Part shown: in pieces, positions 447-29,502 of the stretch
Position numbering within the stretch: the stretch's first letter is position 1
Layout of the letters: every line of letters starts with the position of its first letter
NCBI GenBank assembly: GCA_001001185.1
Contig: LCKC01000003.1
Coordinates: forward strand, 1 to 32,000
Length of the DNA stretch: 32,000 nucleotides
Source of the DNA: Parcubacteria group bacterium GW2011_GWB1_45_10
GTDB taxonomy: Bacteria; Patescibacteriota; Minisyncoccia; UBA6257; Brennerbacteraceae
Direction: 5' to 3'
Notes under the pieces: model-generated
Told to the model about the DNA's origin: nothing
What the model saw: the letters and a program-made list of their open reading frames with translations, nothing else
The model's database searches: none
Translations under genes and position numbers: made by a program

Positions 447-2843
447 ATGCCGATAAACAATTTTCTTACGAGAACGGTTAAAATGCTTTTGTTCTTGTTC
501 GCTTTGACACCGCTCGTTGTTTCCGATTCTTTTTATCTTTTCCCGTTTGTCCTGCCGAAAGTGATATTTCTCCGTTCCGTCATCGGCTTGGCTTTGATTT
601 TATTCCTCGCCGATGTTTTGGCGGGTTTTTTCAAGACCCGAACTTTCCCGTCATTTCGTTTTTGGAAAAACCCGATCTTTATTTTCGTCTGCCTTTTCTT
701 AATATCCGCGGCTTTGAGTTCAATTTTTGCGCCCAATGCTTACCGTGCTTTCTTCGGCAATGCCGAGCGCAGCGAAGGACTCTACGGCATCCTCCATTAT
801 TTTGTTTTTATGATTCTCTCGCTTTTGATTTTCAGAAAGAAGGACTGGTTTACATTTTTTAAAATTCTTCTTGTCGTCGGTTTTATTTCTTCTTTTTACG
901 CTTGGCTTCAGTATTTGCGTATTGATAAATTCCCGCTGGCGTTTCCCGCCGAAGCCCAGCCCGGCTCGTTCCACGGCAATCCGGCTTTTTTGGCAAGCTA
1001 TCTTATTCTTCTTTTTGCGCCCGCCGCTTTCATTTTCTTAAACTCTAAAGAAGGCAGTTTTTGGCGCTATGCTTCGGTTTTCGTTTCGGTTTTCGCCTTT
1101 GCCACCGTCTTCATCACGGCCATCCGGGGCGCGATTTTGGGCCTTGCCGCCGGCCTTACGGTTCTTTTGATAATTTTGGCTTTCAGCTCAAAATTAAAAG
1201 TCAGGAAACTTTTTTTCGTAAATATAAGCGTCATTTTGCTCCTCGTTCTTATTGCTTTCGGATTTACTTTTTGGACGACGAAGGATTCGCCTTTCTGGCT
1301 CAAAATCCCCGGCCTTAATCGCTTAACCTCTCTTTCGTTTGAAAATCCGTCGGTTGTGACGCGTCTGGTGGGCCTTAAAATCAGCTGGGACGCTTTCAAG
1401 GAGAAACCGATTCTGGGTTGGGGGATGGAAAATTACGGCATCGCTTACAACAAGCACTTCGACCCGAGCTACTCTTTTTATGCAGAAGACTGGTTTGACC
1501 GGGCGCACAACCGGGTGGCCGACATTGCCGTGATGCAGGGACTGTTCGGATTTCTCGCTTATTTTGGGCTTTTGGGCAGCGTGTTCTATTTATTCTTCAA
1601 AGAATGGAAGAAAAAAAACGAGGGAGAGATTTCCCGGGCGGCGCCGGTTTTGGCCGCCGTCTTTGCGGCGTATTTCGTGAACAATTTTTTCCTTTTCGAC
1701 CAAATCACTTCTTACATCCCGCTTTTTGGAATTCTGGGATTTTTGATTGCCGAATCAAATATAGGGAGGTCCGACCTCCCAAATATTGATGGCAACGTCA
1801 GGAGGTCGGACCTCCGGGGAATTGGGCAGAAAATTAATCCCTACCTCTTTGCCCTGCCGGCTCTGGTTTTAACGGGCGGCGTACTCTGGGCACTCTATTT
1901 CTGGAATTACTTGCCGGTTTATCAAGTCATTACCCTCCGTGATGCCGTGAGGAGTCGTGTCGGCCAAAATATTTTGGCCGCCTCCGATAAATTTCTCACG
2001 CCCTACAACTACATCCAGATGGAGATAAGAAAGCAGTTTTTGGAAATTATTTACAACAGCAAGCTCATTACCAATGAGAAATTCAAGCCGCTTGCTGACA
2101 AAGCCCTCCAGGCCATGGAGGAATTCACGGACAAAGAACCGTTTGACCCGAGGCACTTCAGTTCCCTTATTGAATCCTACAACGAAAGAGCCAAAGAAGA
2201 CCCAAGTTTGTTTACCAAGACGGAAGTTTTCGCAAGGAAAGCGGTTGCTCTCTCGCCTAACCGCCAGGGCCTTCTTTATCATCTCGCCTTCACTTTAGCC
2301 GGTGAAGAGCGGTTTGACGAAGCGATTGAACTCTCAAGAGAAACACTTGCGCTTGACCCCCGCATCGCCAAAGCCCATTACGAACTTGCGATTAACTTAG
2401 CGCTTGCAGCCGACTCCGAAAAATATAAAGGCACGCCGAAACAAATGGAATACCGCACGGAAGCCCTCAAAGAACTTGACGAGGCATTAGATTTGGGCAG
2501 CCGCCGTTTGGGTTCCTTGGAGCCCTACAGCGGTTCGGATATCACCAACACCCAGTACTATCTTTTCTTGGAGAGCGACCTAAAGAATATGGTTATTTTG
2601 TATCGCAGTCTGGGTTTGCCAGACCGGATGGCTAAGGTTTTGGAAATTTTGATTGTTTCCCATCCGGAAAACAAGGATTACCGCTACGACGCGATGGTTG
2701 TTTACCGTGCCCTGCGCGATAAGGATAAAATAATAGAACACGCCGAGGCCTTAAAGAAACTAGACCCGGCGCTTGCCTCGGATATGGATACCATTATTGA
2801 TTTAGCGGAAAAAGGAGAGTGGGAGATTTTGGACTCATTCTAA
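447..2843 (+). CDS. O-antigen ligase/polymerase-like (Wzy_C family) polytopic membrane protein fused to a C-terminal membrane-anchored TPR-like domain
   Basis: 798-aa ORF. The N-terminal ~440 aa are strongly hydrophobic and multi-TM, with a WGMENYG...DRAHN segment. The C-terminal ~300 aa are helical-repeat (TPR-like; ALSPNRQGLLYHLAF, ALDPRIAKAHYELA). It is a clear paralog of 27603-28910 plus 28903-29502. Confidence 0.8.
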   Translation: MPINNFLTRTVKMLLFLFALTPLVVSDSFYLFPFVLPKVIFLRSVIGLALILFLADVLAGFFKTRTFPSFRFWKNPIFIFVCLFLISAALSSIFAPNAYRAFFGNAERSEGLYGILHYFVFMILSLLIFRKKDWFTFFKILLVVGFISSFYAWLQYLRIDKFPLAFPAEAQPGSFHGNPAFLASYLILLFAPAAFIFLNSKEGSFWRYASVFVSVFAFATVFITAIRGAILGLAAGLTVLLIILAFSSKLKVRKLFFVNISVILLLVLIAFGFTFWTTKDSPFWLKIPGLNRLTSLSFENPSVVTRLVGLKISWDAFKEKPILGWGMENYGIAYNKHFDPSYSFYAEDWFDRAHNRVADIAVMQGLFGFLAYFGLLGSVFYLFFKEWKKKNEGEISRAAPVLAAVFAAYFVNNFFLFDQITSYIPLFGILGFLIAESNIGRSDLPNIDGNVRRSDLRGIGQKINPYLFALPALVLTGGVLWALYFWNYLPVYQVITLRDAVRSRVGQNILAASDKFLTPYNYIQMEIRKQFLEIIYNSKLITNEKFKPLADKALQAMEEFTDKEPFDPRHFSSLIESYNERAKEDPSLFTKTEVFARKAVALSPNRQGLLYHLAFTLAGEERFDEAIELSRETLALDPRIAKAHYELAINLALAADSEKYKGTPKQMEYRTEALKELDEALDLGSRRLGSLEPYSGSDITNTQYYLFLESDLKNMVILYRSLGLPDRMAKVLEILIVSHPENKDYRYDAMVVYRALRDKDKIIEHAEALKKLDPALASDMDTIIDLAEKGEWEILDSF
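1764..1815. repeat. Pair of palindromic units (GGAGGTCCGACCTCC and GGAGGTCGGACCTCC) read in frame inside the Wzy_C-TPR gene
   Basis: Unit 1 is 1765-1779 (extendable to 1764-1780). Unit 2 is 1801-1815 and is the exact reverse complement of unit 1. Both are translated as RSDL in the linker GRSDLPNIDGNVRRSDLRG. Confidence 0.85.
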
Positions 2844-4764: not shown

Positions 4765-4788
4765 GGTGGTATACTTAAGTATACCACC
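4765..4788. promoter_or_regulatory. Perfect 24-bp palindrome GGTGGTATACTTAAGTATACCACC in the degT-pglF intergenic gap (operator or U-tract-less hairpin)
   Basis: Checked base by base: the first half GGTGGTATACTT is the reverse complement of the second half AAGTATACCACC. Confidence 0.6.
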
Positions 4789-10299: not shown

Positions 10300-10527
10300 T
10301 TAAAACAGTTCTTTAAGTTTTTCTATACTAACTTCGGCGTCTCTTAGAATACTTTTTAAAATTTTTGGATGAAGGATCTTGCCGGCATGGTGCGGCACCG
10401 TGACGCGTTTGCCGCCGGCATTTTTGTAGATTCTATGACTACCGCTTTGTCGTGTTAAAACAAAACCGGCCTTTTCTAGGACGGCAATAATCTCTTTAGC
10501 GGTAACTCGCGGCAACTCCTTTGACAT
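10300..10527 (-). CDS. hicA: HicA-family type II toxin (mRNA interferase)
   Basis: 75 aa with ...LEKAGFVLTRQSGSHRIYKN...VTVPHHAGKILHPKILKSILRDA, a typical HicA/YcfA pattern. Confidence 0.85.
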   Translation of the reverse strand: MSKELPRVTAKEIIAVLEKAGFVLTRQSGSHRIYKNAGGKRVTVPHHAGKILHPKILKSILRDAEVSIEKLKELF

Positions 10528-10534
10528 ACGAATG

Positions 10535-10759
10535 TTAAGCAGCCACCTCTATAGTAGATAGGCTTAGAGATTTCGCTTCAGGCAATTCTTCTCCGCTTTG
10601 TATTTTGTCTTCCAAATGAAGCTTGACGGCATCCTTGATATTCCCCAATGCCTCTTCATAGGTTTCGCCTTGACTGTAACAGCCCTGTAATTCTGGACAA
10701 AACACAAAATAGCCGTTTTCATCCCGCTCAATGATAATAGAAAGACGATAATTTTTCAT
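10535..10759 (-). CDS. hicB: HicB-family (UPF0150) antitoxin
   Basis: 74 aa with GYFVFCPELQGCYSQGETYEEALGNIKDAVKLHLE, a typical HicB N-terminal domain. It lies immediately upstream of hicA. Confidence 0.85.
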   Translation of the reverse strand: MKNYRLSIIIERDENGYFVFCPELQGCYSQGETYEEALGNIKDAVKLHLEDKIQSGEELPEAKSLSLSTIEVAA

Positions 10760-10767
10760 GTATTATT

Positions 10768-17897: not shown

Positions 17898-19607
17898 ATG
17901 AAAATCCTCATGGTTTACCTGCGGCCGTCGCCGGTTTCGCCGCAGAAGAATTCCGCGCTCTCCGTGATTTATCCGGGGAGGGCGGCGGAGGAAGCCGGGC
18001 ACGATGTGGATTACTGGGATGCGCGCTTGGACAGCGAGAAGAAGTTGTGGTTTCTCACCGAGTGGGCCGACGTCGTGGCGATAAGCTCGCTCTCCGGTTT
18101 TCAGCTTGGAGAGTCAATTCGTTTCGCCCGCCGGGTAAGGGAATTGTATCCCAATAAACCCCTTGTTTGGGGCGGGGTGCATCCGACGTTCCAGCCCGTT
18201 CAGTCGCTCCGGGAACCCTTCGTTGACTTCTGCGTTATCGGTGAAGGCGAGAAGCGGTTTCCACGCCTCCTCGAAGTAATTGAGGGGGGTCGCGGGTTTC
18301 GATGTATTGATGGCTTGGGCTACAAAAGGACAAGCATCGGGTACGAACCGAGTCCGGAAGAAGAAGAGGTTTTCACGGACCCGGAGGCGCACCCCGGCGG
18401 TCTCGTGCTCCGGCCGATTCCCGGCCGCGAAGGCATGGACCGAATCGAGCTTCACGACGCGATGGGCGTTTTCGGCGACATTGCCGTGAACCCCCGCGGT
18501 CCGCTTCTTGACTTTGCGACCGAGTACGTTTCGGCGGTTTCGGAGAGAACGCTTCGTCTTTTCCGGGCGGCGGCGAAACGCAACGAGGTCATCTTCCAGG
18601 CCTCCCGCGGGTGTAACTGGACGCCGACCTCCTGCGAATTCTGTTCGGTCGGCGGCCAGTACACGGAGCAAGTGCCGGATCCGCGGACGGGCGAAGTAAA
18701 AACCCGGTCGCGGTACCGGTTCATTCCGTTCGAGCTTTGGTCGAAGGATTTAGGTGAGATCTACGACGCCGAACCTTTCGACTTCGTTGAGCTCGAAGAC
18801 GAGAATTCTTCGCATTTCGTGAGGGATTGGCGGTACGCCGAGTTCTTGCGAGAGCGGGGAGTGAAGTATCACCTTCACCTGCGGTCAGATCAGCTTCAAG
18901 ATGAGGAGGTTGTTTCCAAGCTCGCCGCGACGGGCTGTATCCGGATCCACATCGGCGCCGAGTCCGGGAACGAAGAGACACTTCGGACGATGCGGAAGAA
19001 CGAATCCGTCGCGGATCACTACAAGGCCGCGCGGGTGCTCGCCGAGTACGGTATCGAAGGAGTTTACACCTGGATTATCGGCAACCCCGGCGAGAAACCT
19101 CCCGAGATAATGGATACGCTTCGCGTCTCGGACGAGGTTCGGGCGCTCCATCCGCTAGGCAAGAGCCGGGCGACCATCTATGTGCTCATGCCGCTCCCGG
19201 GCACCATCGCTTTCAACCGGGCGGAGAAAGAGGGCTGGCCGTTGCCGACGACGATGGAGGGGTGGACGGATATGTCGGCGGCCTACAATCCGACCCTGCC
19301 CAAGTGGATGAACAACATCTACTTCATCGCCGGCTTTCATCACAATCGTCACCACAAAACGCCGCAGAATTTCCCCGGTTGGTGGCGGCTCCTCATTCTG
19401 CCTTTCGAGGTCGTGATGGAGTGGCGGTGGCGTCAGGGGATCAGAACGGCGAATATCGCCTACTTCAGCTGGTTTGACCTGGAATACTGGTGCATCGCCA
19501 AGCTCTTGTCTTGGCGAAGCCAGCGTTCCGTCGGACAGACGTCTCAAGGGCGTAGTCAGGTGCCCAAGCTTTTGGAACGGCTGATGCCGGGCCTGGCCGG
19601 GCACTAG
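17898..19607 (+). CDS. B12-binding-domain radical SAM enzyme (class B-like)
   Basis: 569 aa. N-terminal Rossmann-like B12-type domain (VVAISSLSG, WGGVHPTF, CVIGEGE), then SRGCNWTPTSCEFCSV and a TIM-barrel-type core (IRIHIGAESGN). SD GGGGAGAG. High GC. Confidence 0.75.
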   Translation: MKILMVYLRPSPVSPQKNSALSVIYPGRAAEEAGHDVDYWDARLDSEKKLWFLTEWADVVAISSLSGFQLGESIRFARRVRELYPNKPLVWGGVHPTFQPVQSLREPFVDFCVIGEGEKRFPRLLEVIEGGRGFRCIDGLGYKRTSIGYEPSPEEEEVFTDPEAHPGGLVLRPIPGREGMDRIELHDAMGVFGDIAVNPRGPLLDFATEYVSAVSERTLRLFRAAAKRNEVIFQASRGCNWTPTSCEFCSVGGQYTEQVPDPRTGEVKTRSRYRFIPFELWSKDLGEIYDAEPFDFVELEDENSSHFVRDWRYAEFLRERGVKYHLHLRSDQLQDEEVVSKLAATGCIRIHIGAESGNEETLRTMRKNESVADHYKAARVLAEYGIEGVYTWIIGNPGEKPPEIMDTLRVSDEVRALHPLGKSRATIYVLMPLPGTIAFNRAEKEGWPLPTTMEGWTDMSAAYNPTLPKWMNNIYFIAGFHHNRHHKTPQNFPGWWRLLILPFEVVMEWRWRQGIRTANIAYFSWFDLEYWCIAKLLSWRSQRSVGQTSQGRSQVPKLLERLMPGLAGH

Positions 19608-19669: not shown

Positions 19670-19748
19670 ATTACTCTAAAATATCTGATCTTCCAAATCT
19701 TTGAAATTGATGCTAAATTATAAATAATAACTGAATACGCCTAACCCT

Positions 19749-19754
19749 TATAGT
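19749..19754 (+). promoter_or_regulatory. -10-like box TATAGT, 6 nt upstream of the uORF ATG at 19761
   Basis: TATAGT TTTTCT ATG, preceded by an A/T-rich tract. The -35 is weak. The spacing matches the other leaderless-type promoters in the window. Confidence 0.3.
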
Positions 19755-19760
19755 TTTTCT

Positions 19761-19820
19761 ATGAGATATGGCAACAAAACCCACTACAGGACAGACAGCT
19801 CGTCATCAGAGCACCTGTAG
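19761..19820 (+). CDS. Candidate 19-codon leader peptide (MRYGNKTHYRTDSSSSEHL)
   Basis: ATG at 19761 to TAG at 19818-19820. It reads through the 5' repeat copy and stops inside the inverted copy, and contains four consecutive Ser codons. Purely predicted. Confidence 0.3.
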   Translation: MRYGNKTHYRTDSSSSEHL

Positions 19821-19924
19821 TGGGTCATATCCCGAAAGGGGTATGGGTAGTCGAAAGATTATCGCTGGTGGCGGGCTTTGTGTTTATCTGCCGCCAGAAG
19901 CATAAATAAAAACCCACTACAGGC
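19776..19924 (+). promoter_or_regulatory. Structured cis-regulatory leader RNA (unclassified riboswitch or attenuator-like) upstream of the methyltransferase block
   Basis: 15-nt perfect direct repeat (19776-19790 and 19909-19923) plus its 12-nt exact inverted copy (19814-19825). Three contiguous hairpins follow, two with GAAA loops. G-U pairs occur only on the + strand. Confidence 0.6.
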
Positions 19925-20656
19925 ATGCTTAAGAAGATACTAAAAACTGTATTAAGTGCTATATATAGATTACTTTTAAGACCATCTATAAGGTATGTTT
20001 TTCCAATAACCGTTGATAGATATCCTTTATTGGGATATGGAGACAGGGAAAAGATATTTTTCTATGCAATGGAGTTTGCAGCAGGCGGGGAAAAACTTGG
20101 CGGCGATTACTTAGAATTTGGTGTTGGTAACGGCGGCAGTTTTATTATTGCTTTTCATTTTGCGAAAAAACTCGAGAAGTTGAATTCAATGAAATTTTAC
20201 GCCTTTGATTCTTTTCGGGGGCTGCCAGAGCCTAAAGAAATTGATTTAGAAGAAAAGATTTTTAAAAAAGGAGAATATATGTGTTCAGAAGACGAGTTTT
20301 TAGAAAATATAAGAAAAAACGGGGTTGATTTAAATAGGGTAATTACTGTCCCCGGCTGGTATAAGGAGGTTCTAAATAAAGAAACTAAAGATAAACTTCA
20401 AATTCAGCGAGCAGCAGTTGTTTTTATCGACTGCGATCTTTACGAATCGGCTAATCTTGTTTTAAATTTTATAACTGATTATCTTGTGGATGGCTCTGTT
20501 CTTATATTTGATGATTGGTTTTGTTTTCGAGGGAATTCTAACAAGGGCGAACAAAAAGCTTTTGGAGAGTGGCTTAGAAAAAATCCAGAGATAAAGGTGT
20601 CAGAATTCTATAAATTTAGCTGGCATGGTAATTCATTTATTATTCATAAGGACTAG
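19925..20656 (+). CDS. TylF/MycF-family (macrocin-O-methyltransferase-like) SAM-dependent sugar O-methyltransferase
   Basis: 243 aa with YLEFGVGNGGS, FDSFRGLPEP and FIDCDLYESA, hallmarks of the TylF family. Low GC. Confidence 0.75.
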   Translation: MLKKILKTVLSAIYRLLLRPSIRYVFPITVDRYPLLGYGDREKIFFYAMEFAAGGEKLGGDYLEFGVGNGGSFIIAFHFAKKLEKLNSMKFYAFDSFRGLPEPKEIDLEEKIFKKGEYMCSEDEFLENIRKNGVDLNRVITVPGWYKEVLNKETKDKLQIQRAAVVFIDCDLYESANLVLNFITDYLVDGSVLIFDDWFCFRGNSNKGEQKAFGEWLRKNPEIKVSEFYKFSWHGNSFIIHKD

Positions 20657-20726
20657 GTCTTAAAGATATTTTATATAACTTTTTACTCCTCTTTATTTTT
20701 TGTTGTTGTGCTATTATTGTGATTAA

Positions 20727-21758
20727 ATGACGCGATGCAATATTTGTGGTAACGAAAATACCAAAAAAATGTATAGTGATCACGTCGGTTACATAGAAAA
20801 TGATGTTTACGATATTTACGGATGTGATAGTTGTGATGCTCAATTTGTTTCACCGTTGAAAGTCGATCCAAAATTATATGATATTATCTATTCGGATAGG
20901 ACTAATGAGATAGGACCTGCAGGATACGGTCAGCACTTAATTCAAGCTAAAAAAATTTCAAATCACGATAAGCCATTAGAGTTTTTAATAGAGACAGACA
21001 TCAATTATTCAGTTGTCGGGGATTATCTTAAAGACAAGAAAAATCTGGATATTCTGGAAGTGGGCGCTGGTTATGGATATTTAACTTACGCTCTGAAAAA
21101 ATTAAATCATAATTCATTCGGTATCGATATTTCTCGCGTGACGATTGATTATGCGCTCCAAACTTTTGGACCAAATTACAAATGCGCAGATTTAGAATCT
21201 TTTATCGGAAGCATAGGCAATAACCGGAAATTTGATCTTATCATAGCTATAGAGCTGGTTGAGCATCTTTCTAACCCAGAAAAGTTCATTAAAAATTGTT
21301 TTTCAATCCTTAAACCGAACGGTAGAGTGTTAATTACCACCCCTAATAAAGGTTATTATCGAAAAGGTAGTATTTGGATTTCTGATTTGCCGCCCGTTCA
21401 TCTGTTTTGGTTGAGCCCAAAAACCTTTAACTATATTGCGGAAGAAAATGGTTTAAACTTGAAATATTTCGACCTAGCTTCTCATATATTAAAACATGAC
21501 AAAATTAACCTTCTCATCAACTATTTGCGCAGTAGAGAAAAGATCAGAATAAGGCCGCATGTTTTTAAAGCATCTGGAGAACTCAATTTAGAAAATCATA
21601 ATTCTTTAAACCAACCGTCGTTGTTGAAGAAGCTTGTGCGCTTTATACTTGTTGATATAGCTCCAATAAGAATATTGTCTAATTTTCTTTATCGTAAAAT
21701 TATAAATCCAAAATTTCCAAATACCTCAACGCAAGCTTTATTATTATGGAGAGGATAA
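20727..21758 (+). CDS. Class I SAM-dependent methyltransferase with an N-terminal CxxC...CxxC zinc-ribbon
   Basis: CNICGN...CDSCDA at the N-terminus, motif I ILEVGAGYG, then LIIAIELVEHL and LKPNGRVLITTPN. Confidence 0.75.
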   Translation: MTRCNICGNENTKKMYSDHVGYIENDVYDIYGCDSCDAQFVSPLKVDPKLYDIIYSDRTNEIGPAGYGQHLIQAKKISNHDKPLEFLIETDINYSVVGDYLKDKKNLDILEVGAGYGYLTYALKKLNHNSFGIDISRVTIDYALQTFGPNYKCADLESFIGSIGNNRKFDLIIAIELVEHLSNPEKFIKNCFSILKPNGRVLITTPNKGYYRKGSIWISDLPPVHLFWLSPKTFNYIAEENGLNLKYFDLASHILKHDKINLLINYLRSREKIRIRPHVFKASGELNLENHNSLNQPSLLKKLVRFILVDIAPIRILSNFLYRKIINPKFPNTSTQALLLWRG

Positions 21759-21761
21759 ATT

Positions 21762-22430
21762 ATGTTGGAATTTTTAAGAAAGCATAAAAAGCTCGTATAC
21801 TTATTCCTCCCCACACTCCGGATTTCCAGTGTGGGCTGGATTAGTACCATGATTGAACTTCGTAGGCAGTTTAATAAATTAAAGCCCGGCATCGTGTTAG
21901 ATATCGGCGGCGGAGACGCGCCCTACAAAAAATTTGTACCACACACAAAGTACATGACCTTAGATGTTGACAAATCTAGTAATCCCGATATTTTATCTGA
22001 CGCCCATAATATTCAATGGCAATCAAATTATTTTGATACCATTATTTCAATTGAAACACTGGAACATCTTCGCGAACCGCAAAAATCCATTAATGAAATT
22101 TATAGGTTACTGAAGCCGGGAGGGGTCTGTGTGCTCTCTACGAGGTTTTTACATCCTTATCATCCGGGACCAGAGGATCATTATAGATTTACGTGGGATT
22201 CTTTAAGACATCTTTTTAGAAAATTTGATAATATTGAAATTTATCATGTTGGAAACAGATTACAATTATTCCATCAGTTTATAAACTTTGTAGATAGTGA
22301 GAATTTTTTAAAACAATTTATTACGACAGGAATGGCAATTTTTTTGAACATATTAAATCCTATTTTTGCAAGAATTCGCTTTAAAAAGACTAAATTCCCC
22401 TTAGGTTTTGTAGTATATGCAAGAAAATAA
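21762..22430 (+). CDS. Class I SAM-dependent methyltransferase (Methyltransf_11-like)
   Basis: VLDIGGGDAPY motif I, then IISIETLEHL and LKPGGVCVLS. Confidence 0.75.
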   Translation: MLEFLRKHKKLVYLFLPTLRISSVGWISTMIELRRQFNKLKPGIVLDIGGGDAPYKKFVPHTKYMTLDVDKSSNPDILSDAHNIQWQSNYFDTIISIETLEHLREPQKSINEIYRLLKPGGVCVLSTRFLHPYHPGPEDHYRFTWDSLRHLFRKFDNIEIYHVGNRLQLFHQFINFVDSENFLKQFITTGMAIFLNILNPIFARIRFKKTKFPLGFVVYARK

Positions 22431-23364
22431 ATACAAAAATTCTAAAGCAACTATTATTGTAAATACTTATAACCGTTCTAAAATTTTAGCCGAACGTTCT
22501 TTGCCGAGTGCTCTAAATCAAACTTATAAGAATTTTGATGTTATTATTGTTGACGATTGTTCAAAAGACGACACTGAAGAAATAGTTAAAGAATTTCAAA
22601 AGAAATATTCCGACCTTAGATATATAAAACAAAAAGGAAATAAAGGATTAGCTGCTTCAAGGAATACCGGCGCAAGAAAAGCAAGAGGAGAGTATGTTGT
22701 TTGTTTGGACGATGATGACGCTCTAGACCAAAAATTTTTAGAAATTACCGTTCCAGTTTTAGATAGATTACCAAAAGACTTTGGTGGCGTTGGTTGTGGT
22801 AGAAAAATCATTTATCCGGAGGCTGAAATTTATTCTCCGCCAGCGCATGCAAATCAACTTTACATTTCAATAGACGACGGCTTCCTTTTAAGGAAAAGCA
22901 TATTTTCCAAAATTAATTATGACGAGAATTTAAGATGGAGCGAAGATGCTGATTTCGGTATTCAGTTTTTCAAAAATTTTAAAATACACATGATAGATAA
23001 ACCATTATTACTGAAATACGGTCATAAAATAGAGGCATCTAAGAAAACCGATTATTTCTCTTTCAGCTTTCCTTCAGAACAAGTTCTTGTTGATATGCAA
23101 AAGTATATTGATAAAAACTTGCCATTTTTTTATGAACGGCGAGACAAAAAAGAAATTGCTTATATTTATCGTATGGCCGGGAGAAATTATTGTTGGGGTG
23201 GGCATATGTTTAAAGGAATTTCTTTTTTATGGCGAGCGTGCGTTACAAGACCAGTCCCCAGAAATATTTTGAATCTTTTGATGGCTCTCTGCGGTCCTTT
23301 TATTTATCGCTATTATTTAGCATTTGAAACAAGGATGATACGTCTTATACGTTCTCGGCTTTAA
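22417..23364 (+). CDS. Family 2 glycosyltransferase
   Basis: ATIIVNTYNRSK...IIVDDCSKDDT...CLDDDDA (DxD). 14-nt overlap with the upstream gene. Confidence 0.85.
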   Translation: MQENKYKNSKATIIVNTYNRSKILAERSLPSALNQTYKNFDVIIVDDCSKDDTEEIVKEFQKKYSDLRYIKQKGNKGLAASRNTGARKARGEYVVCLDDDDALDQKFLEITVPVLDRLPKDFGGVGCGRKIIYPEAEIYSPPAHANQLYISIDDGFLLRKSIFSKINYDENLRWSEDADFGIQFFKNFKIHMIDKPLLLKYGHKIEASKKTDYFSFSFPSEQVLVDMQKYIDKNLPFFYERRDKKEIAYIYRMAGRNYCWGGHMFKGISFLWRACVTRPVPRNILNLLMALCGPFIYRYYLAFETRMIRLIRSRL

Positions 23365-23374
23365 TACTTAGATA

Positions 23375-24211
23375 ATGATTAGCTACATTTTTTCGAACTT
23401 AGGAATGATTTGGTTTTTGCTTCAGCGCGCCAAGAATTGGAAAGCGCGGATTACCTTCGCCTCCTATATCGCAAGGAACATCCTGCGCCGGCTCATTAAA
23501 AGCGTTCCGTTGCCGGCCGAGATTTTTGCGGAAACAAAAGATTTAGATTTTTATTTTTCGCCTGGCAAAAGCGAACTCTCTCCCTACGTGGAGATTTACC
23601 GCGACCGCGGCTATGAAAAAGACGGGCGGTTTATTGCGAAGCCCGGCGAGACGGTTATAGATGTCGGCGCCCACATCGGCTTTTACGCCATCTGCGAGGC
23701 GAAACGAGTTGGAGAAAAAGGGAAAGTTTTTGTCATTGAACCGAACCCCGATACTTTCGGACGGCTTTTAAAAAACATAAAAGCCAATGATTTAGAGAAC
23801 GTTGTTCCTTTGAATAACGCCGCCACTTCGCGGAAAGGAAGGGTTTTACTCCGGGTTTCCGTAAGTTCGAGCGAAGCCAATACGATTATGGCCTCCGGCA
23901 CAACAGACGATTACGGAGAGGAAATTAAAATCCAAGCCATCGGTCTTGATGAAATTGTTAAAAAATATAACCTTTCTAAGATTGATATTTTGAAAATTGA
24001 CGCCGAAGGCGCGGAAGCGGAAGTGGTTGAGAGCGGTCTCAAAAAGGCCTTGCCGATAACGGAGAAAATCGTGACGGAAACCCACTCTGAAAACCTGAAA
24101 AACGAAGTTAAAAAACTTGTTTTGGGGAACGGCTTTGAACTTGTTGCCGAAGCGTTCTCCGGCGTGAACGCTTTAGGGAGAAATACGATGCTCTATTTCG
24201 TCAGAATTTAA
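23375..24211 (+). CDS. FkbM-family methyltransferase
   Basis: VIDVGAHIGFYA, VFVIEPNPDTF and ILKIDAEGAE, the typical FkbM pattern. Confidence 0.8.
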   Translation: MISYIFSNLGMIWFLLQRAKNWKARITFASYIARNILRRLIKSVPLPAEIFAETKDLDFYFSPGKSELSPYVEIYRDRGYEKDGRFIAKPGETVIDVGAHIGFYAICEAKRVGEKGKVFVIEPNPDTFGRLLKNIKANDLENVVPLNNAATSRKGRVLLRVSVSSSEANTIMASGTTDDYGEEIKIQAIGLDEIVKKYNLSKIDILKIDAEGAEAEVVESGLKKALPITEKIVTETHSENLKNEVKKLVLGNGFELVAEAFSGVNALGRNTMLYFVRI

Positions 24212-24869
24212 CTTCAACGATGCCGCCGTGTTTGCTCCACTCGCCGGGCCAGACATCTTCGGTGAATTTAGTGAGGGTGACTTTCGCCGCGGGCGCGATT
24301 TCTTTGAATAAGGTTTCATAATTGTAGGCCCAGTGGCCCAAATACTCCCAATCTTTCACCGAATTCCATTCAACGAGAATCACCGCATACTTCGCGATTC
24401 TCGCGAGTTCTCTTAATACCCCCTTAATCTTGTTTTTGCCGACGTAAATCAAGACCGCATCCGTAAAGACGACGTCAAAACTTTTGTCAGGAATGTTTTT
24501 CAGATTAAGAACGTTGCCTACCCGGAGTTCAACGTTCTTTATCTTCTGGAGTTCGAGGTATTTTTTGCCGGTTTGAATGGCCGAACCGCTTAGGTCGATG
24601 CCGGAAAACTTCGCTTGCGGCAGTTTTCGGGAGAGCAGGATGAGGTTCGGCCCAGAAGCGCAGCCGATTTCAAGCGCGTTTTGCGGATTGTATTTCGATA
24701 TTTTTTCGACGAGCAGCGACCGGTGGGGATGGGCGAGCGATTGTTTGGAAACGTAATTTTCCGGCCACCGCCGGTCGATGAAATGCCGGAAGCGCCAGAA
24801 CAATAGGTCGCTGGTCGTGCCCAGAACTTTATTTGATATTCTTTTAGCTATTTTTAATAACGTTCTCAT
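24201..24869 (-). CDS. Class I SAM-dependent methyltransferase
   Basis: ALEIGCASGPN motif I and DVVFTDAVLIYV. The ORF-track start at 24920 is a TTG. I prefer the ATG at 24869, which still overlaps the GT4 gene by 26 nt. Confidence 0.7.
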   Translation of the reverse strand: MRTLLKIAKRISNKVLGTTSDLLFWRFRHFIDRRWPENYVSKQSLAHPHRSLLVEKISKYNPQNALEIGCASGPNLILLSRKLPQAKFSGIDLSGSAIQTGKKYLELQKIKNVELRVGNVLNLKNIPDKSFDVVFTDAVLIYVGKNKIKGVLRELARIAKYAVILVEWNSVKDWEYLGHWAYNYETLFKEIAPAAKVTLTKFTEDVWPGEWSKHGGIVEVKF

Positions 24870-25953
24870 ACAATTTTTCAACCTTAGCCATTTCCACGTA
24901 ATAGTTATTTTTTTCTTCAATAATTTGTCGGTTGCGGGCGCCTTGCGATTTCCTCAAACTCTCGTTATTTATGAGAGCTATTATTTTTTCGGCGAGCACC
25001 TCCGGGGATTTTATGGGAATCACAAACTCATTATCCACCCACTCTTTGTTGTCGCCCGAGTCAGTGACGATGACTGGCAGACCCGTCGCCATCGCTTCGG
25101 CCGTTGAAGAGGAGAGACCACTGTCGGAGAGAGCGGTGGAAACGTAAATATCGGCTTCTTGAAGATGGCGCGGTAACTCTTCGTTATTAATTTTACCCAA
25201 AAATTTAACAGAACTTTCAATATTGAGTTCTTTAGCCAGGTTTTCGAGTTTTTCTTTTTCCGGCCCGCCGCCCGCGAGCAGAAATTCAGCATTGGGGGCG
25301 GATTTTAGGACAATAGCCGCCGCCTTTATTAATGTTTCAATGTCGTAAATCGGTACTAAGCTACGCAACGAAATAACTTTCAATGTTTTGGAGGTTGAAC
25401 CTCCTAAAGGAGGTTCAACCTCCTTATGTTGGACTGGTCGAAATTTCTCCACGTCGGTGCCGAAGCGGATAAGATGAATTTTTTCTCGGTCGGCTCCCAA
25501 ACCAATGAGTTTTTGGAACGTATTTTCGCCGTCGCAGGTGTAGGTGTCGGCCCGGTCAACGATGAACATGACTGAGAATTTTCTGATTAATCCGCCAAGA
25601 AGGATGTCTGAGCCCCAGGGAGTGAGGACCGCCGGATGAAAATTCGCGAGGGCGGCGGCGAGGCCGTAAGTGCCGGCTGAGTGGACGTGTAAAAGGTCCG
25701 GCCGCTCAGCCCGCAAAATCCCCTTGATTTGTTTTACCGCTTGCGGCAAATAACGGATGGCAAATCGGCCGTTGATATCGGCAAGAGGCGAGGGCGTTAT
25801 CTCGTAAAATTTTACTTTTTTAACCAAATTCTCCGCTTCTGGAATGGACGGCGCAAAAGAAATCCAGATGATTTCGTGGCCGCGGCTCACGAAAAATTTT
25901 ATCCAGCGGACGCTGTGGATGGAATTGGCACCGGCAAGGTAGGCTATTTTCAT
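24844..25953 (-). CDS. Family 4 (GT-B fold) glycosyltransferase
   Basis: 369 aa with a two-Rossmann layout and EX7E-type C-terminal motif (STAEAMATGLPVIVTDSGDNKEWV). Confidence 0.85.
   Translation of the reverse strand: MKIAYLAGANSIHSVRWIKFFVSRGHEIIWISFAPSIPEAENLVKKVKFYEITPSPLADINGRFAIRYLPQAVKQIKGILRAERPDLLHVHSAGTYGLAAALANFHPAVLTPWGSDILLGGLIRKFSVMFIVDRADTYTCDGENTFQKLIGLGADREKIHLIRFGTDVEKFRPVQHKEVEPPLGGSTSKTLKVISLRSLVPIYDIETLIKAAAIVLKSAPNAEFLLAGGGPEKEKLENLAKELNIESSVKFLGKINNEELPRHLQEADIYVSTALSDSGLSSSTAEAMATGLPVIVTDSGDNKEWVDNEFVIPIKSPEVLAEKIIALINNESLRKSQGARNRQIIEEKNNYYVEMAKVEKLYENVIKNS
25390..25423. repeat. Perfect 15-bp inverted repeat GGAGGTTGAACCTCC-TAAA-GGAGGTTCAACCTCC read in frame inside the GT4 gene
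   Basis: Unit 2 (25409-25423) is the exact reverse complement of unit 1 (25390-25404). On the minus strand it encodes ...KEVEPPLGGSTSK... in the inter-domain linker. Confidence 0.85.
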
Positions 25954-27581: not shown

Positions 27582-27591
27582 GTGTTAATAT
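27563..27591 (+). promoter_or_regulatory. Promoter TTGAAG-17-TAATAT for the second Wzy_C gene
   Basis: TTGAAG at 27563-27568, a 17-nt spacer, TAATAT at 27586-27591, 11 nt before the ATG at 27603. Confidence 0.45.
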
Positions 27592-27616
27592 TAACCCCAG
27601 TCATGACCTTTTTCAA
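27588..27616 (-). promoter_or_regulatory. Promoter TTGAAA-17-TAATAT for the dehydrogenase, 6 nt before its ATG
   Basis: Minus strand reads TTGAAA AAGGTCATGACTGGGGT TAATAT TAACAC ATG. Its -10 overlaps the +-strand -10 inside the palindrome GTTAATATTAAC (27584-27595). Confidence 0.45.
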
Positions 27617-28910
27617 AATCTCCAAATTCTTTCTTTACACGGCTCTCCTCGCCGTCATTTTCGTCAATGCCCAGACCCTTTTTCCTTTCATTGTTTTCAA
27701 ATACGTCTTTTTCCGGAGCGCGGTTTTGGCTGCCTTTATTTTCTTTCTCCTGGGTTTTTTGTTTTTGAGCGGTGAGGAAATGGAACAGTTCAAGAGTGAG
27801 GCGAAACGCCGGCTGAAATCGCCGCTCGTCATTGCGGTCTCAATTTTTGTTCTTGCCTTTCTTCTAGCAGGTCTCTTTGGTTTTAATCCTGCTTATTCCT
27901 TTTGGTCCAATTTTGAACGCGGCGAAGGCGGTTTCCAGATGCTCAATTTGTATGTATTTTTCTTGCTCTTAATTTTGCTTTTCCGCGACAAAAAGGACTG
28001 GCTTGCCGCTTTTAAGGTTTCCGTCACGGCGGCATTTTTAATGATTGCTTATGGCGTGCTTGCCGGCCTCGGCGTTCAAGGCTTCGTGGGCGTCCCTTTG
28101 AAAATAGGCCAGCGTTTCCAAGGTTCGCTCGGCAATACGGCTTACGTCGGCACCTATCTTCTTTTCGGGTTGTTTTATGTTTTTTACCTCCTTAAATCTT
28201 TGCGGGGCTTGAAATCGAAGATCGTTTTATGGCCGCTTGTTCCTATTTTTTTGGCAACCATCTGGTTTACCCAAACCCGCGGCGCTTTCTTGGGACTTGC
28301 CGCCGGCGTCGCGGCTTTTCTTTTATTTTCGGCACTCTCTAAAAATGGCGTGTTCCGCCGGGCGAGCGCCATGATCCTTATTATCTTAGTTTTATTGGGA
28401 GCATTTCTCTACCAGATCCGCTCTTCGCCGCTCATGCAGAAACTTTCTCTCACCCGTTTTTTCAACATCACTTTAAGCAATCTCTCCACCCAGAGTCGGT
28501 TTTGGTCTTGGGGTTCGGCGGTTGAGGGCTGGAAGGAGCGGCCGATTTTCGGCTGGGGGCCGGAGAATTACAACCGGCTTTTTGACAAGTATTTTGATAC
28601 GCGCCATTTCGTTCCCAATCAACCATCGGATACCTGGTACGACCGGGCTCACAGCATTATTTTTGATTATTTGGCTGAAACCGGCGTTGTCGGTCTCCTT
28701 GGTTATCTCGGCGTTTTCGGGGTTCTTTTTTTCTGGTTTTTTAAACGTTCGCCCCTCACCGATTTATCTCCGCCGGAGAAGGGACTTGTTCTTGCCATGA
28801 CCGCCGCTTATCTTGTCCAAGGGCTCGTGATTTTCGACGTTTTGCCGATTTACCTTAACCTGTTTTTGTTTTTAGGTTTTGTGAATTTTGCCTATCATAA
28901 AAATGAGTAA
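27603..28910 (+). CDS. O-antigen ligase/polymerase-like (Wzy_C family) membrane protein, paralog of the N-terminal part of 447-2843
   Basis: Multi-TM. Shares LFPF..K..F.RS, ERGEGG, FRDKKDW and WGPENYN...YDRAHS blocks with the 798-aa protein. Start set at the ATG at 27603 because the GTG at 27582 abuts the divergent start. Confidence 0.8.
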   Translation: MTFFKISKFFLYTALLAVIFVNAQTLFPFIVFKYVFFRSAVLAAFIFFLLGFLFLSGEEMEQFKSEAKRRLKSPLVIAVSIFVLAFLLAGLFGFNPAYSFWSNFERGEGGFQMLNLYVFFLLLILLFRDKKDWLAAFKVSVTAAFLMIAYGVLAGLGVQGFVGVPLKIGQRFQGSLGNTAYVGTYLLFGLFYVFYLLKSLRGLKSKIVLWPLVPIFLATIWFTQTRGAFLGLAAGVAAFLLFSALSKNGVFRRASAMILIILVLLGAFLYQIRSSPLMQKLSLTRFFNITLSNLSTQSRFWSWGSAVEGWKERPIFGWGPENYNRLFDKYFDTRHFVPNQPSDTWYDRAHSIIFDYLAETGVVGLLGYLGVFGVLFFWFFKRSPLTDLSPPEKGLVLAMTAAYLVQGLVIFDVLPIYLNLFLFLGFVNFAYHKNE

Positions 28911-29502
28911 CGCCATTTTAAAAATATCCGCAGCAGTTTTGATAATTGCCTCCGCCGCCGGCTGGTGGTTCGGCGCTTATCTTCCCTTCCAGAAATCCAA
29001 GCGGTTCATCGAAGTAATCCGTTCCGGTTCGGTCATTAAGACCATTGATGAATTGGAAAGGCGGTTCAATGCGGTTCTGGATTTTTATTCGCCGGTGGGA
29101 GAAGCCGAGGCCATCGGTTTTTTCGCCGACCAGATGGTCAATGTTTTGGGCACTAAGCCGCCGGCGGATGTGGGCGAGCGATTGATTGCCTACACCGAAG
29201 AAAAAGCGAGGCCGGTTTTGGAAAATCCCGAAAGTCCGGAACTCACCAAGGTTTTCCTTAAAGTGGCAAGCTTAAACGAGGTGGGTTGGATAATTTATCA
29301 AAAAGAAGAATACTTCCGCCGAGCCGAAAATTATCTTCTCGAAGGTTTGAAAATTAGCCCGAACCGCCCCCAATATCTTTACGGCCTTTTCAATCTTTAC
29401 GCGAGCGTGGGTGATAGGGAACGCGTAAAAGCGATTGGGGAAGAAATTCTCCGTTTCTGGCCTAACGATGAAGTTATGCGGGCAAAGGTCAGCCTTCTTT
29501 AA
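28903..29502 (+). CDS. Membrane-anchored TPR-like protein, paralog of the C-terminal tail of 447-2843
   Basis: N-terminal TM helix then YLPFQK (compare YLPVYQ), and SPNRPQYLYGLFN (compare SPNRQGLLYHLAF). The ATG at 28903 overlaps the upstream stop by 8 nt (ATGAGTAA). Confidence 0.65.
   Translation: MSNAILKISAAVLIIASAAGWWFGAYLPFQKSKRFIEVIRSGSVIKTIDELERRFNAVLDFYSPVGEAEAIGFFADQMVNVLGTKPPADVGERLIAYTEEKARPVLENPESPELTKVFLKVASLNEVGWIIYQKEEYFRRAENYLLEGLKISPNRPQYLYGLFNLYASVGDRERVKAIGEEILRFWPNDEVMRAKVSLL

Follow-up and report, generated by a model that had tools for sequence, protein, structure and literature searches.

A pair of inverted 15-nucleotide (nt) hairpins lies in frame within a gene of Parcubacteria group bacterium GW2011_GWB1_45_10 and belongs to a family of hairpin doublets found mostly in Patescibacteria. 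We analyzed 32,000 nt of this genome (contig LCKC01000003.1, positions 1 to 32,000; hereafter the window), in which the element occupies positions 1754–1815. With a probability of roughly 0.72, it is a non-autonomous repeat of the REP/REPIN type (repetitive extragenic palindromic sequences and their hairpin-forming doublets), part of a system resembling those of REP-associated tyrosine transposases (RAYTs) and persisting in frame in protein linkers. The proposed unit is a 15-nt hairpin, GGAnnT-N3-AnnTCC, set down as two inverted copies.

The host gene reads straight through the doublet. Its two units, GGAGGTCCGACCTCC and GGAGGTCGGACCTCC, are exact reverse complements separated by 21 nt, and each consists of 6-nt self-complementary arms around a 3-nt center. 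The frame of the 798-amino-acid (aa) open reading frame (ORF) runs through both, giving ...IGRSDLPNIDGNVRRSDLRG... (longer stretch: GRSDLPNIDGNVRRSDLRG). An earlier note on this DNA had described the paired 15-mers, their self-complementarity and their frame, all of which the sequence confirmed. It had also placed AAATAT on both sides of unit 1; the motif is indeed there (Table 1; right-hand copy at 1781–1786), with the left coordinates corrected by one base. The spacer contains the AAATATTGA motif common to long-form copies of the family. The doublet is predicted to fold with an energy of −36 to −40 kcal/mol, with z between −5.8 and −8.4 for the window doublets. Rfam 15, searched at gathering and permissive thresholds, held no family for the element and returned only sub-threshold miRNA-hairpin noise at 1761–1821 (E > 1).

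A chance palindrome or an assembly artefact is refuted, having only the small size of the element to recommend it. The window contains four matches to the generic unit GGAGGTNNNACCTCC where 0.03 would be expected, and none of 100 shuffles reached that count. Three independent assemblies with the same protein have identical sequence at this position, and more than 100 independent metagenome-assembled genomes (MAGs) contain related copies.

Table 1. Positions and sequence variants of the hairpin doublets, their host genes and the hairpins at RAYT-like loci
Location	Position	Strand	Feature	Remarks
Window	447–2843	+	Host gene, 798 aa	Wzy_C (O-antigen-ligase-like) membrane domain and TPR-like tail
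Window	1754–1764	+	AT-rich left flank ATCAAATATAG	Includes AAATAT at 1757–1762; 9/11 nt as in L001 copy; resembles AAAWATT flank consensus over 94 doublets
Window	1765–1779	.	Unit 1, REP-like hairpin GGAGGT-CCG-ACCTCC	6-bp stem, 3-nt loop
Window	1780–1800	+	21-nt spacer CAAATATTGATGGCAACGTCA	17/21 identical in L001
Window	1787–1800		Small hairpin TGATG-GCAA-CGTCA	Within spacer, predicted by folding
Window	1801–1815	.	Unit 2, GGAGGT-CGG-ACCTCC	With unit 1, REPIN-like inverted doublet with 15-bp stem
Window	24844–25953	-	GT4 glycosyltransferase gene	Host of second doublet
Window	25390–25423	.	Short-form doublet GGAGGTTGAACCTCC-TAAA-GGAGGTTCAACCTCC	Minus strand translates in frame to EVEPPLGGSTS
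Window	27582–29502	+	Split paralogous pair: Wzy_C-only gene 27582–28910, 204-aa tail gene 28888–29502	Context, not element
GT4, window and P0136			GGAGGT-TGA / GGAGGT-TCA	P0136 65% aa identity to window
GT4, P0122			GGAAGT-TGA / GGAAGT-TCA	76%
GT4, P0121, P0123, P0134			GGACTT-CGC / GGACTT-GCG, small variants	79, 75, 71%
GT4, P0129			One unit GGAAGT-TTA-ACTTCC beside decayed partner	Seventh ortholog
L012			Unit 18 nt beyond 3' end of RAYT-like gene	Doublet at 5' end
L088			Units 19 nt upstream, inside in frame (LGGSTSK) and at stop codon
L088	3249–3263		Internal in-frame hairpin or doublet
L102			Units on either side and within the gene
L204			Own variant GGAAAC-CAG/CTG-GTTTCC upstream, inside and downstream	Locus not selected by DNA pattern
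L204	12288–12302		Internal in-frame hairpin or doublet
L032	2191–2225		Internal in-frame hairpin or doublet
L209	2939–2959, 3735–3755		TCCGAAGG-N5-CCTTCGGA hairpins on both sides	Inverted loops
L209	3205–3242		Internal in-frame hairpin or doublet
L210	912–940		L209-type hairpin	Downstream side only
L210	407–436		Internal in-frame hairpin or doublet
L184	1726–1756, 2473–2495		Flanking TGTCAAAAGT-N3-ACTTTTGACA hairpins	Inverted loops
L057	6820–6850, 7553–7583		Flanking TAGACACTCGGTGT... hairpins	Inverted loops

The element sits in a linker that is hypervariable in both length and sequence. The host ORF is 100% identical to the "O-antigen ligase" of Parcubacteria group bacterium GW2011_GWB1_45_10, and the element makes up its residues 440–457, lengthening by about 17 residues (GRSDLPNIDGNVRRSDLR) the loop that connects the Wzy_C domain with the following transmembrane helix. 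All 120 homologs listed are fused Wzy_C and TPR-like proteins of about 680–890 aa, apart from one 582-aa match covering 70% of the query. The closest ortholog, at 65% identity, has no element peptide. Because fusion is near-universal among the listed homologs and the closest ortholog is without the element, the element did not make the fusion.

A split version of the same protein places a gene boundary at the position of the element. BLASTP aligns the 442-aa Wzy_C paralog as far as residue 433 of the fused protein, and residue 440 is the first encoded by the element. For the downstream ORF of 204 aa, BLASTP detects no similarity to the fused protein, and hhalign places it on residues 470–638 (probability 76%, E 2e-5). 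Together these alignments put the boundary where the earlier note had seen it. The segment might then be a fossil intergenic region, including the Shine-Dalgarno (SD) sequence of the downstream gene, that came to be read through when Wzy_C and tail genes fused, and many family members do lie exactly between co-directional genes. The ortholog alignment largely refutes this origin, which we consider very improbable: the fusion is old and the linker hypervariable, the split genes share a 23-nt overlap that leaves no spacer, and a second copy is found within a GT4 enzyme of the classical two-domain type, which never consisted of two genes.

This second doublet, absent from the earlier note, occupies the linker joining the two Rossmann-like domains of the GT4 glycosyltransferase, with a predicted fold of −30 kcal/mol. 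Most of 60 GT4 homologs are 9–11 residues shorter at the linker. Six orthologs, the window's included, carry it at the same site and a seventh keeps part of it (Table 1). Its pairing is preserved through changes on both sides of the stem. Read as two small hairpins, 100% of cells are paired and 4 pairs have changed on both sides; read as one long hairpin, 97.8% of cells are paired and 6 pairs have changed on both sides. Slid controls gave 22–64% paired. Five homologs without the doublet (P0132, P0139, P0142, P0145 and P0127) have another linker insert, ENRKQ(K)IENR, apparently a direct repeat at the DNA level, and the GT4 linker seems generally prone to short insertions.

On this sequence evidence, element identity tracks the genome and not the host gene. 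The core matches the window at 30/30 nt in P0136, an ortholog of 65% identity, and at 17/30 in the ortholog of 79% identity, which has GGACTT arms. In a neighbor-joining tree of the GT4 homologs, carriers are interspersed with non-carriers, at a resolution too poor to count gains or losses. The pattern would fit copies being replaced or re-seated by the current master sequence of each genome; it could alternatively reflect hairpin-templated homogenization, and slow independent drift fits it poorly. In another explanation, replication template switching (quasi-palindrome correction) made and perfected the palindromes in place, in repair-poor genomes, from abundant GGAGGT (SD) seeds and with no transposase. 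Perfect complementarity of arms and loop triplets and the 4–12 coordinated substitutions between orthologous copies are what hairpin-templated copying would yield, and GGAGGT is the commonest arm in a sample itself selected for GGAGGT. We nonetheless regard this origin as improbable, since it leaves unexplained the same 15-mers, spacers and AT-rich flanks at unrelated loci across Patescibacteria classes, the single loop triplet per genome, the Y1 transposase genes flanked by units, and a copy in the GT4 linker, which has no reason to hold an SD.

The long form of the window recurs in a distant paralog. P0017, a 47%-identical protein from another metagenome (locus L001), has nearly the same 51-nt element, GGAGGTTCGACCTCC-caaatattgacgtgaatgtca-GGAGGTCGAACCTCC, which matches the window at 45/51 positions (88%) where the gene DNA is about 64% identical. 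The loop triplets co-vary between the two copies, TCG/CGA in P0017 against CCG/CGG in the window. The P0017 gene also contains a short doublet with arms GGACGT/ACGTCC. The CAAATATTGA...TCA spacer layout reappears as its reverse complement in L133, and very similar motifs occur in L009, L087 and L026. Long forms from several candidate phyla have a common layout: an AATATT-like flank, the first unit, (C)AAATATTGA...TCA and the second unit.

The doublet belongs to a repeat family widespread in Patescibacteria. We scanned one genome per species with a doublet pattern biased toward GGAGGT arms and matched at least 119 stretches, mostly in Patescibacteria, where we estimate about 0.1 by chance (24 fixed bases). 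With the second doublet in the window, these supply the further motif copies that the earlier note had made its key test. Matched lineages include Saccharibacteria, Moran-, Nealson-, Harrison-, Jorgensen-, Wolfe-, Kaiser- and Giovannonibacteria, among others; outside Patescibacteria there were matches in some Elusimicrobia and Bdellovibrionales, and a few unrelated tandem repeats in other phyla. A scan of IMG/VR returned a single hit, two adjacent matches 70 nt apart, and thus gave no indication that viral contigs commonly carry the family. We also observed 33-nt doublets, GGAGGTTCAACCTCC-GTT/AAC-GGAGGTTGAACCTCC, often in frame, in high-GC Elusimicrobia MAGs (L019, L029, L079, L106, L114 and L117), and one inverted doublet in a contig binned as Pacearchaeota, a DPANN archaeon (L049). 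These could reflect cross-phylum spread or mis-binning.

Copies are alike within a genome and differ between genomes. Loop triplets are reverse-complementary in about 75% of pairs (chance, 1/64), and one dimer type is favored, with TCG...CGA, for example, found 14 times against once. Several unit copies occur per MAG, even in 8-kb samples, and those of one MAG have a loop triplet in common and frequently a spacer too, whichever way it is oriented, with MAGs differing among themselves: four CGT/ACG copies in CAZYSH01, five TCA/TGA copies with spacer ATAAG or its complement CTTAT in JBBQCF01, four TCA-3-TGA copies in DMXM01 and three CAG/CTG copies in JAGVDT01. Besides the commonest arm, the matched loci contain GGACAT, GGAAGT, GGTAAT, GGAAGC and GAGGGT.

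More than half of the sampled doublets reside within genes. Among 94 inverted doublets, 57 lie wholly within ORFs of at least 90 aa, with both strands and every frame represented; most of the remaining 37 are 5–15 nt from gene ends, often between co-directional genes. Assuming a coding density of about 90%, intergenic space is still over-represented. Outside the units, the 94 doublets have the flank consensus AAAWATT. The palindrome is free of stop codons in most frames on both strands and encodes peptides of the types GG-x-TS, EV-x-PP and RR-xx-L. Being mostly stop-free and linker-friendly, it is therefore presumably simply translated, and read-through is predicted to yield the peptides SDLPNIDGNVR from the Wzy_C-TPR gene and EVEPPLGGSTSK from the GT4 gene.

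The doublet might instead be a selected cis-acting mRNA structure that, at a domain boundary, stalls ribosomes, hides an SD-like GGAGG or guides RNase cleavage; the family would then exist because many genes need this function. Its predicted RNA folds are very stable, pairing at the orthologous GT4 site survives two-sided changes, both imperfect pairs in L123 are G.U on the sense strand, and both window copies lie at inter-domain linkers; the AAATATTGA side is on the coding strand in 5 of about 8 long forms, a few ambiguous cases. Such a function is unlikely, however, given copies in both orientations, all three frames, unrelated genes and intergenic space, SD-like letters that are replaceable, and the absence of any matching Rfam family. 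It also does not predict genome-specific homogeneity or transposase adjacency, and the asymmetry between G.T and A.C mismatches, 3 against 1 in only 4 informative cases, is uninformative. The proposal that the arms mimic an SD:anti-SD duplex is not supported as a defining property: they become GGACGT, GGAAGT, GGACTT, GGACAT or GGAAAC with compensation, copies occur on either strand and in all frames, and the resemblance is incidental or at most ancestral.

Units of the family bracket transposase genes, a link that the earlier note had not made. We found four ORFs bracketed by units, and two of the three tested are Y1_Tnp proteins (PF01797, E 4e-7 and 2e-8; 30–35 bits against a cut-off of 23), the domain of IS200-like HUH tyrosine transposases. 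The third, a 112-aa ORF between units in L133, had no Pfam match. The fourth is a 93-aa minus-strand ORF in L001, antisense within the P0017 gene. The sole NCBIfam match of both Y1 proteins is NF047646, "REP-associated tyrosine transposase" (E 9e-11 to 6e-6), and a PDB sequence search with the RAYT-like protein gave no match. By tblastn, there are 10 RAYT-like genes in about 0.78 Mb of loci selected by the DNA pattern and 2 in 0.93 Mb selected by protein. Eight of these 12 genes have units inside them or no more than 100 nt away (L012, L088, L102, L006, L032, L072, L018 and L204). Such an arrangement, with a RAYT gene between its own REPs, is that of a REPtron.

These proteins form a large family annotated only as "transposase", with at least 7790 members in Patescibacteria at E ≤ 1e-10. 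They are about 220 aa long and have in common GEYYHIYNRG, PNHFH (the HUH motif), YTMYFN, LFQGRFK and YIHLNP, the last motifs resembling those of E. coli RayT. Their genomic neighbors are housekeeping genes, with no tnpB. As an independent control we examined RAYT-like genes picked by protein similarity alone, L204 and five others. L204 has flanking hairpins of its own. Hairpins with inverted loops flank the genes in L209, L184 and L057, and one lies downstream in L210 (Table 1); L211 has no matching flanking pair and a related TTGTCAAAAG hairpin within the gene. The stems of the flanking hairpins are lineage-specific. Other RAYT-like subfamilies are bracketed by hairpins unrelated to the GGAGGT family, and several REP families therefore seem to be present in Patescibacteria.

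One RAYT-like subfamily carries an in-frame hairpin or doublet within the transposase gene itself (L088, L032, L204, L209 and L210; Table 1). Its position is fixed at about nt 184–228, between the GEYYHIYNRG and PNHFH motifs, and its stem letters vary by gene. This internal hairpin may be an autoregulatory site. A broader form of that idea, which we hold to be possible though doubtful, is that doublets and enzyme make up a long-lived, vertically inherited and co-opted system that rewrites resident copies in place, whence the link of element identity to the genome, the in-gene hairpin being autoregulatory and hairpins at gene and domain boundaries modulating translation or mRNA fate where intergenic space is almost lacking.

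We favor a REP/REPIN-type repeat served by a divergent transposase. Units flank, and often sit within, genes of what would be a divergent HUH/Y1 transposase related to RAYTs. By analogy with RAYT and IS200/IS605 enzymes, this transposase would recognize the folded hairpin on single-stranded DNA and cut and join beside it. Cutting and joining would copy or re-seat units at AT-rich AAATATT-like sites, and by the same action the enzyme would keep the copies of one genome alike. In compact, gene-dense genomes, copies would survive only where harmless, in the few intergenic bases or in flexible linkers. The window doublet is probably tolerated because its loop is flexible and its palindrome open in most frames. 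The RAYT-like enzyme maintaining it would be encoded elsewhere in the genome, or would have been formerly.

Several observations weigh against this reading. Among the carriers and non-carriers compared, no empty and filled site formed a pair with exact boundaries or a target duplication, since carriers and non-carriers diverge too far in both linkers for these to be defined, and mobility is therefore not directly shown. A conserved GTAG or CGTC tetranucleotide marks one end of REP units (PMC3733652), and a GTAG/CTAC or CGTC/GACG tag lies near only 1–6 of the 94 doublets. With an AAAWATT flank in place of the tag, these repeats would therefore be a separate REP superfamily. NF047646 scores are 26–42 bits against a curated cut-off of 80. 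In L088 and L204, the two flanking units share loop orientation and the internal unit is inverted, unlike a canonical REPtron. No RAYT-like gene occurs in the window plus an extra 10 kb of the same contig (41.5 kb in total), and these 41.5 kb hold 2 doublets, a low density for the genome in question. In 930 kb of other Wzy_C-bearing contigs of the Candidate Phyla Radiation (CPR), doublets occur in one locus only (L133), and the family therefore has a patchy distribution in CPR and not a universal one.

The window contains other features of note. A full-length LOOT RNA (RF03000, 84 bits against a gathering threshold of 46) lies at 19738–19863 on the plus strand, between ORFs 17898–19607 and 19925–20656. 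A perfect 24-nt palindrome, GGTGGTATACTTAAGTATACCACC, at 4765–4788 is intergenic between two minus-strand genes (4700, 4840) and unrelated to the GGAGGT family. Just upstream of the Wzy_C-TPR gene, a GC-rich terminator-like hairpin, CGAAAGAGCCCC-TTTTC-GGGGCTCTTTCG (385–413), probably ends the upstream 1176-aa gene. A low-GC island at about 20000–24000 (0.35–0.37 against about 0.48 elsewhere) covers the plus-strand genes at 19925–24211 and may have entered the glycan cluster by horizontal transfer. A HicA/HicB toxin-antitoxin pair lies at about 10300–10760 (L205 19818–20277) within the polysaccharide biosynthesis cluster.

A REP-RAYT-related system would thus extend across Patescibacteria, whose genomes are tiny and tightly packed, with more than half of its sampled copies inside proteins. 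It would explain odd linker peptides in CPR proteins (GGSTS, EVEPP, RRSDL), as well as local breaks in the assemblies of CPR MAGs. The units could serve as a marker for strain or lineage tracking, and their positions as a natural inventory of where CPR proteins tolerate insertions. A 15-nt hairpin and a Y1 protein of about 220 aa would make a simple substrate-enzyme pair for learning how RAYT-type enzymes choose and maintain hairpins.

The closest known counterparts are the REP/BIME/REPIN-RAYT systems (BIME, bacterial interspersed mosaic element) of E. coli, with its REP-TnpA_REP pair, and Pseudomonas fluorescens. So far known chiefly in Proteobacteria, REP-RAYT systems are extragenic by definition; the literature we searched held no description of the present sequences, nor of REP/RAYT systems in CPR. 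Both kinds have short palindromic units, mostly in inverted dimers that can form two small hairpins or one long one, genome-specific sequence families, intergenic copies between unidirectional genes, and a single Y1/HUH gene bracketed by units amid housekeeping genes. They differ in several respects. The Patescibacteria unit is 15 nt, or at most 23 nt with flanks (6-bp stem, 3-nt loop), against the 20–40 bp of the REP definition, and it has an AAAWATT-like flank instead of a GTAG/CGTC tag. REPs are predominantly extragenic, whereas more than half of the sampled Patescibacteria dimers are inside ORFs, in frame. The hosts are Patescibacteria with some Elusimicrobia and Bdellovibrionales, and the transposase, about 220 aa, falls below the RAYT model cut-off and often has an in-frame unit in its own gene.

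Rickettsia palindromic elements (RPEs) offer the nearest parallel for residence within genes. RPE-1, at about 100–150 bp, is much longer than the Patescibacteria unit, and we know of no dedicated transposase for CGTC elements. Like RPEs, the doublets are palindromic repeats that interrupt unrelated ORFs without breaking the frame, are presumably translated and are tolerated where the protein forms surface or linker segments, with dimers adding about 20–30 residues. The window doublets are missing from most GT4 homologs and from the closest Wzy_C-TPR ortholog. Unlike RPEs, the family has an associated Y1 gene, and it differs in size, tag and host phylum and probably in sequence. The analogy drawn in the earlier note was apt, since RPE-4 and RPE-6 are themselves CGTC-tagged REP-type repeats; intragenic REPs occur in Opitutus terrae, and in a few species intragenic REP dimers add 20–30 residues (PMC3733652).

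Coding palindromes and hairpin-dependent transposases provide the remaining comparisons. The stop-free frame through the Patescibacteria insert argues for plain translation, not bypassing. Hairpin inserts called "byp" occur in coding sequence of Magnusiomyces mitochondria. Nematomorpha mitochondrial genes likewise contain coding palindromes, perfect inverted repeats within coding sequence (PMC6649704). Unlike the Patescibacteria units, these organellar elements are much longer or are skipped by translational bypassing. IS200/IS605 elements and their palindrome-associated derivatives (PATEs) also use a Y1 HUH transposase acting on subterminal DNA hairpins, but the Patescibacteria system lacks a tnpB partner, its left and right ends are not asymmetric, and its tiny units are dispersed singly or as inverted dimers. 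As with RAYTs, the gene for its transposase looks like a single, domesticated one.

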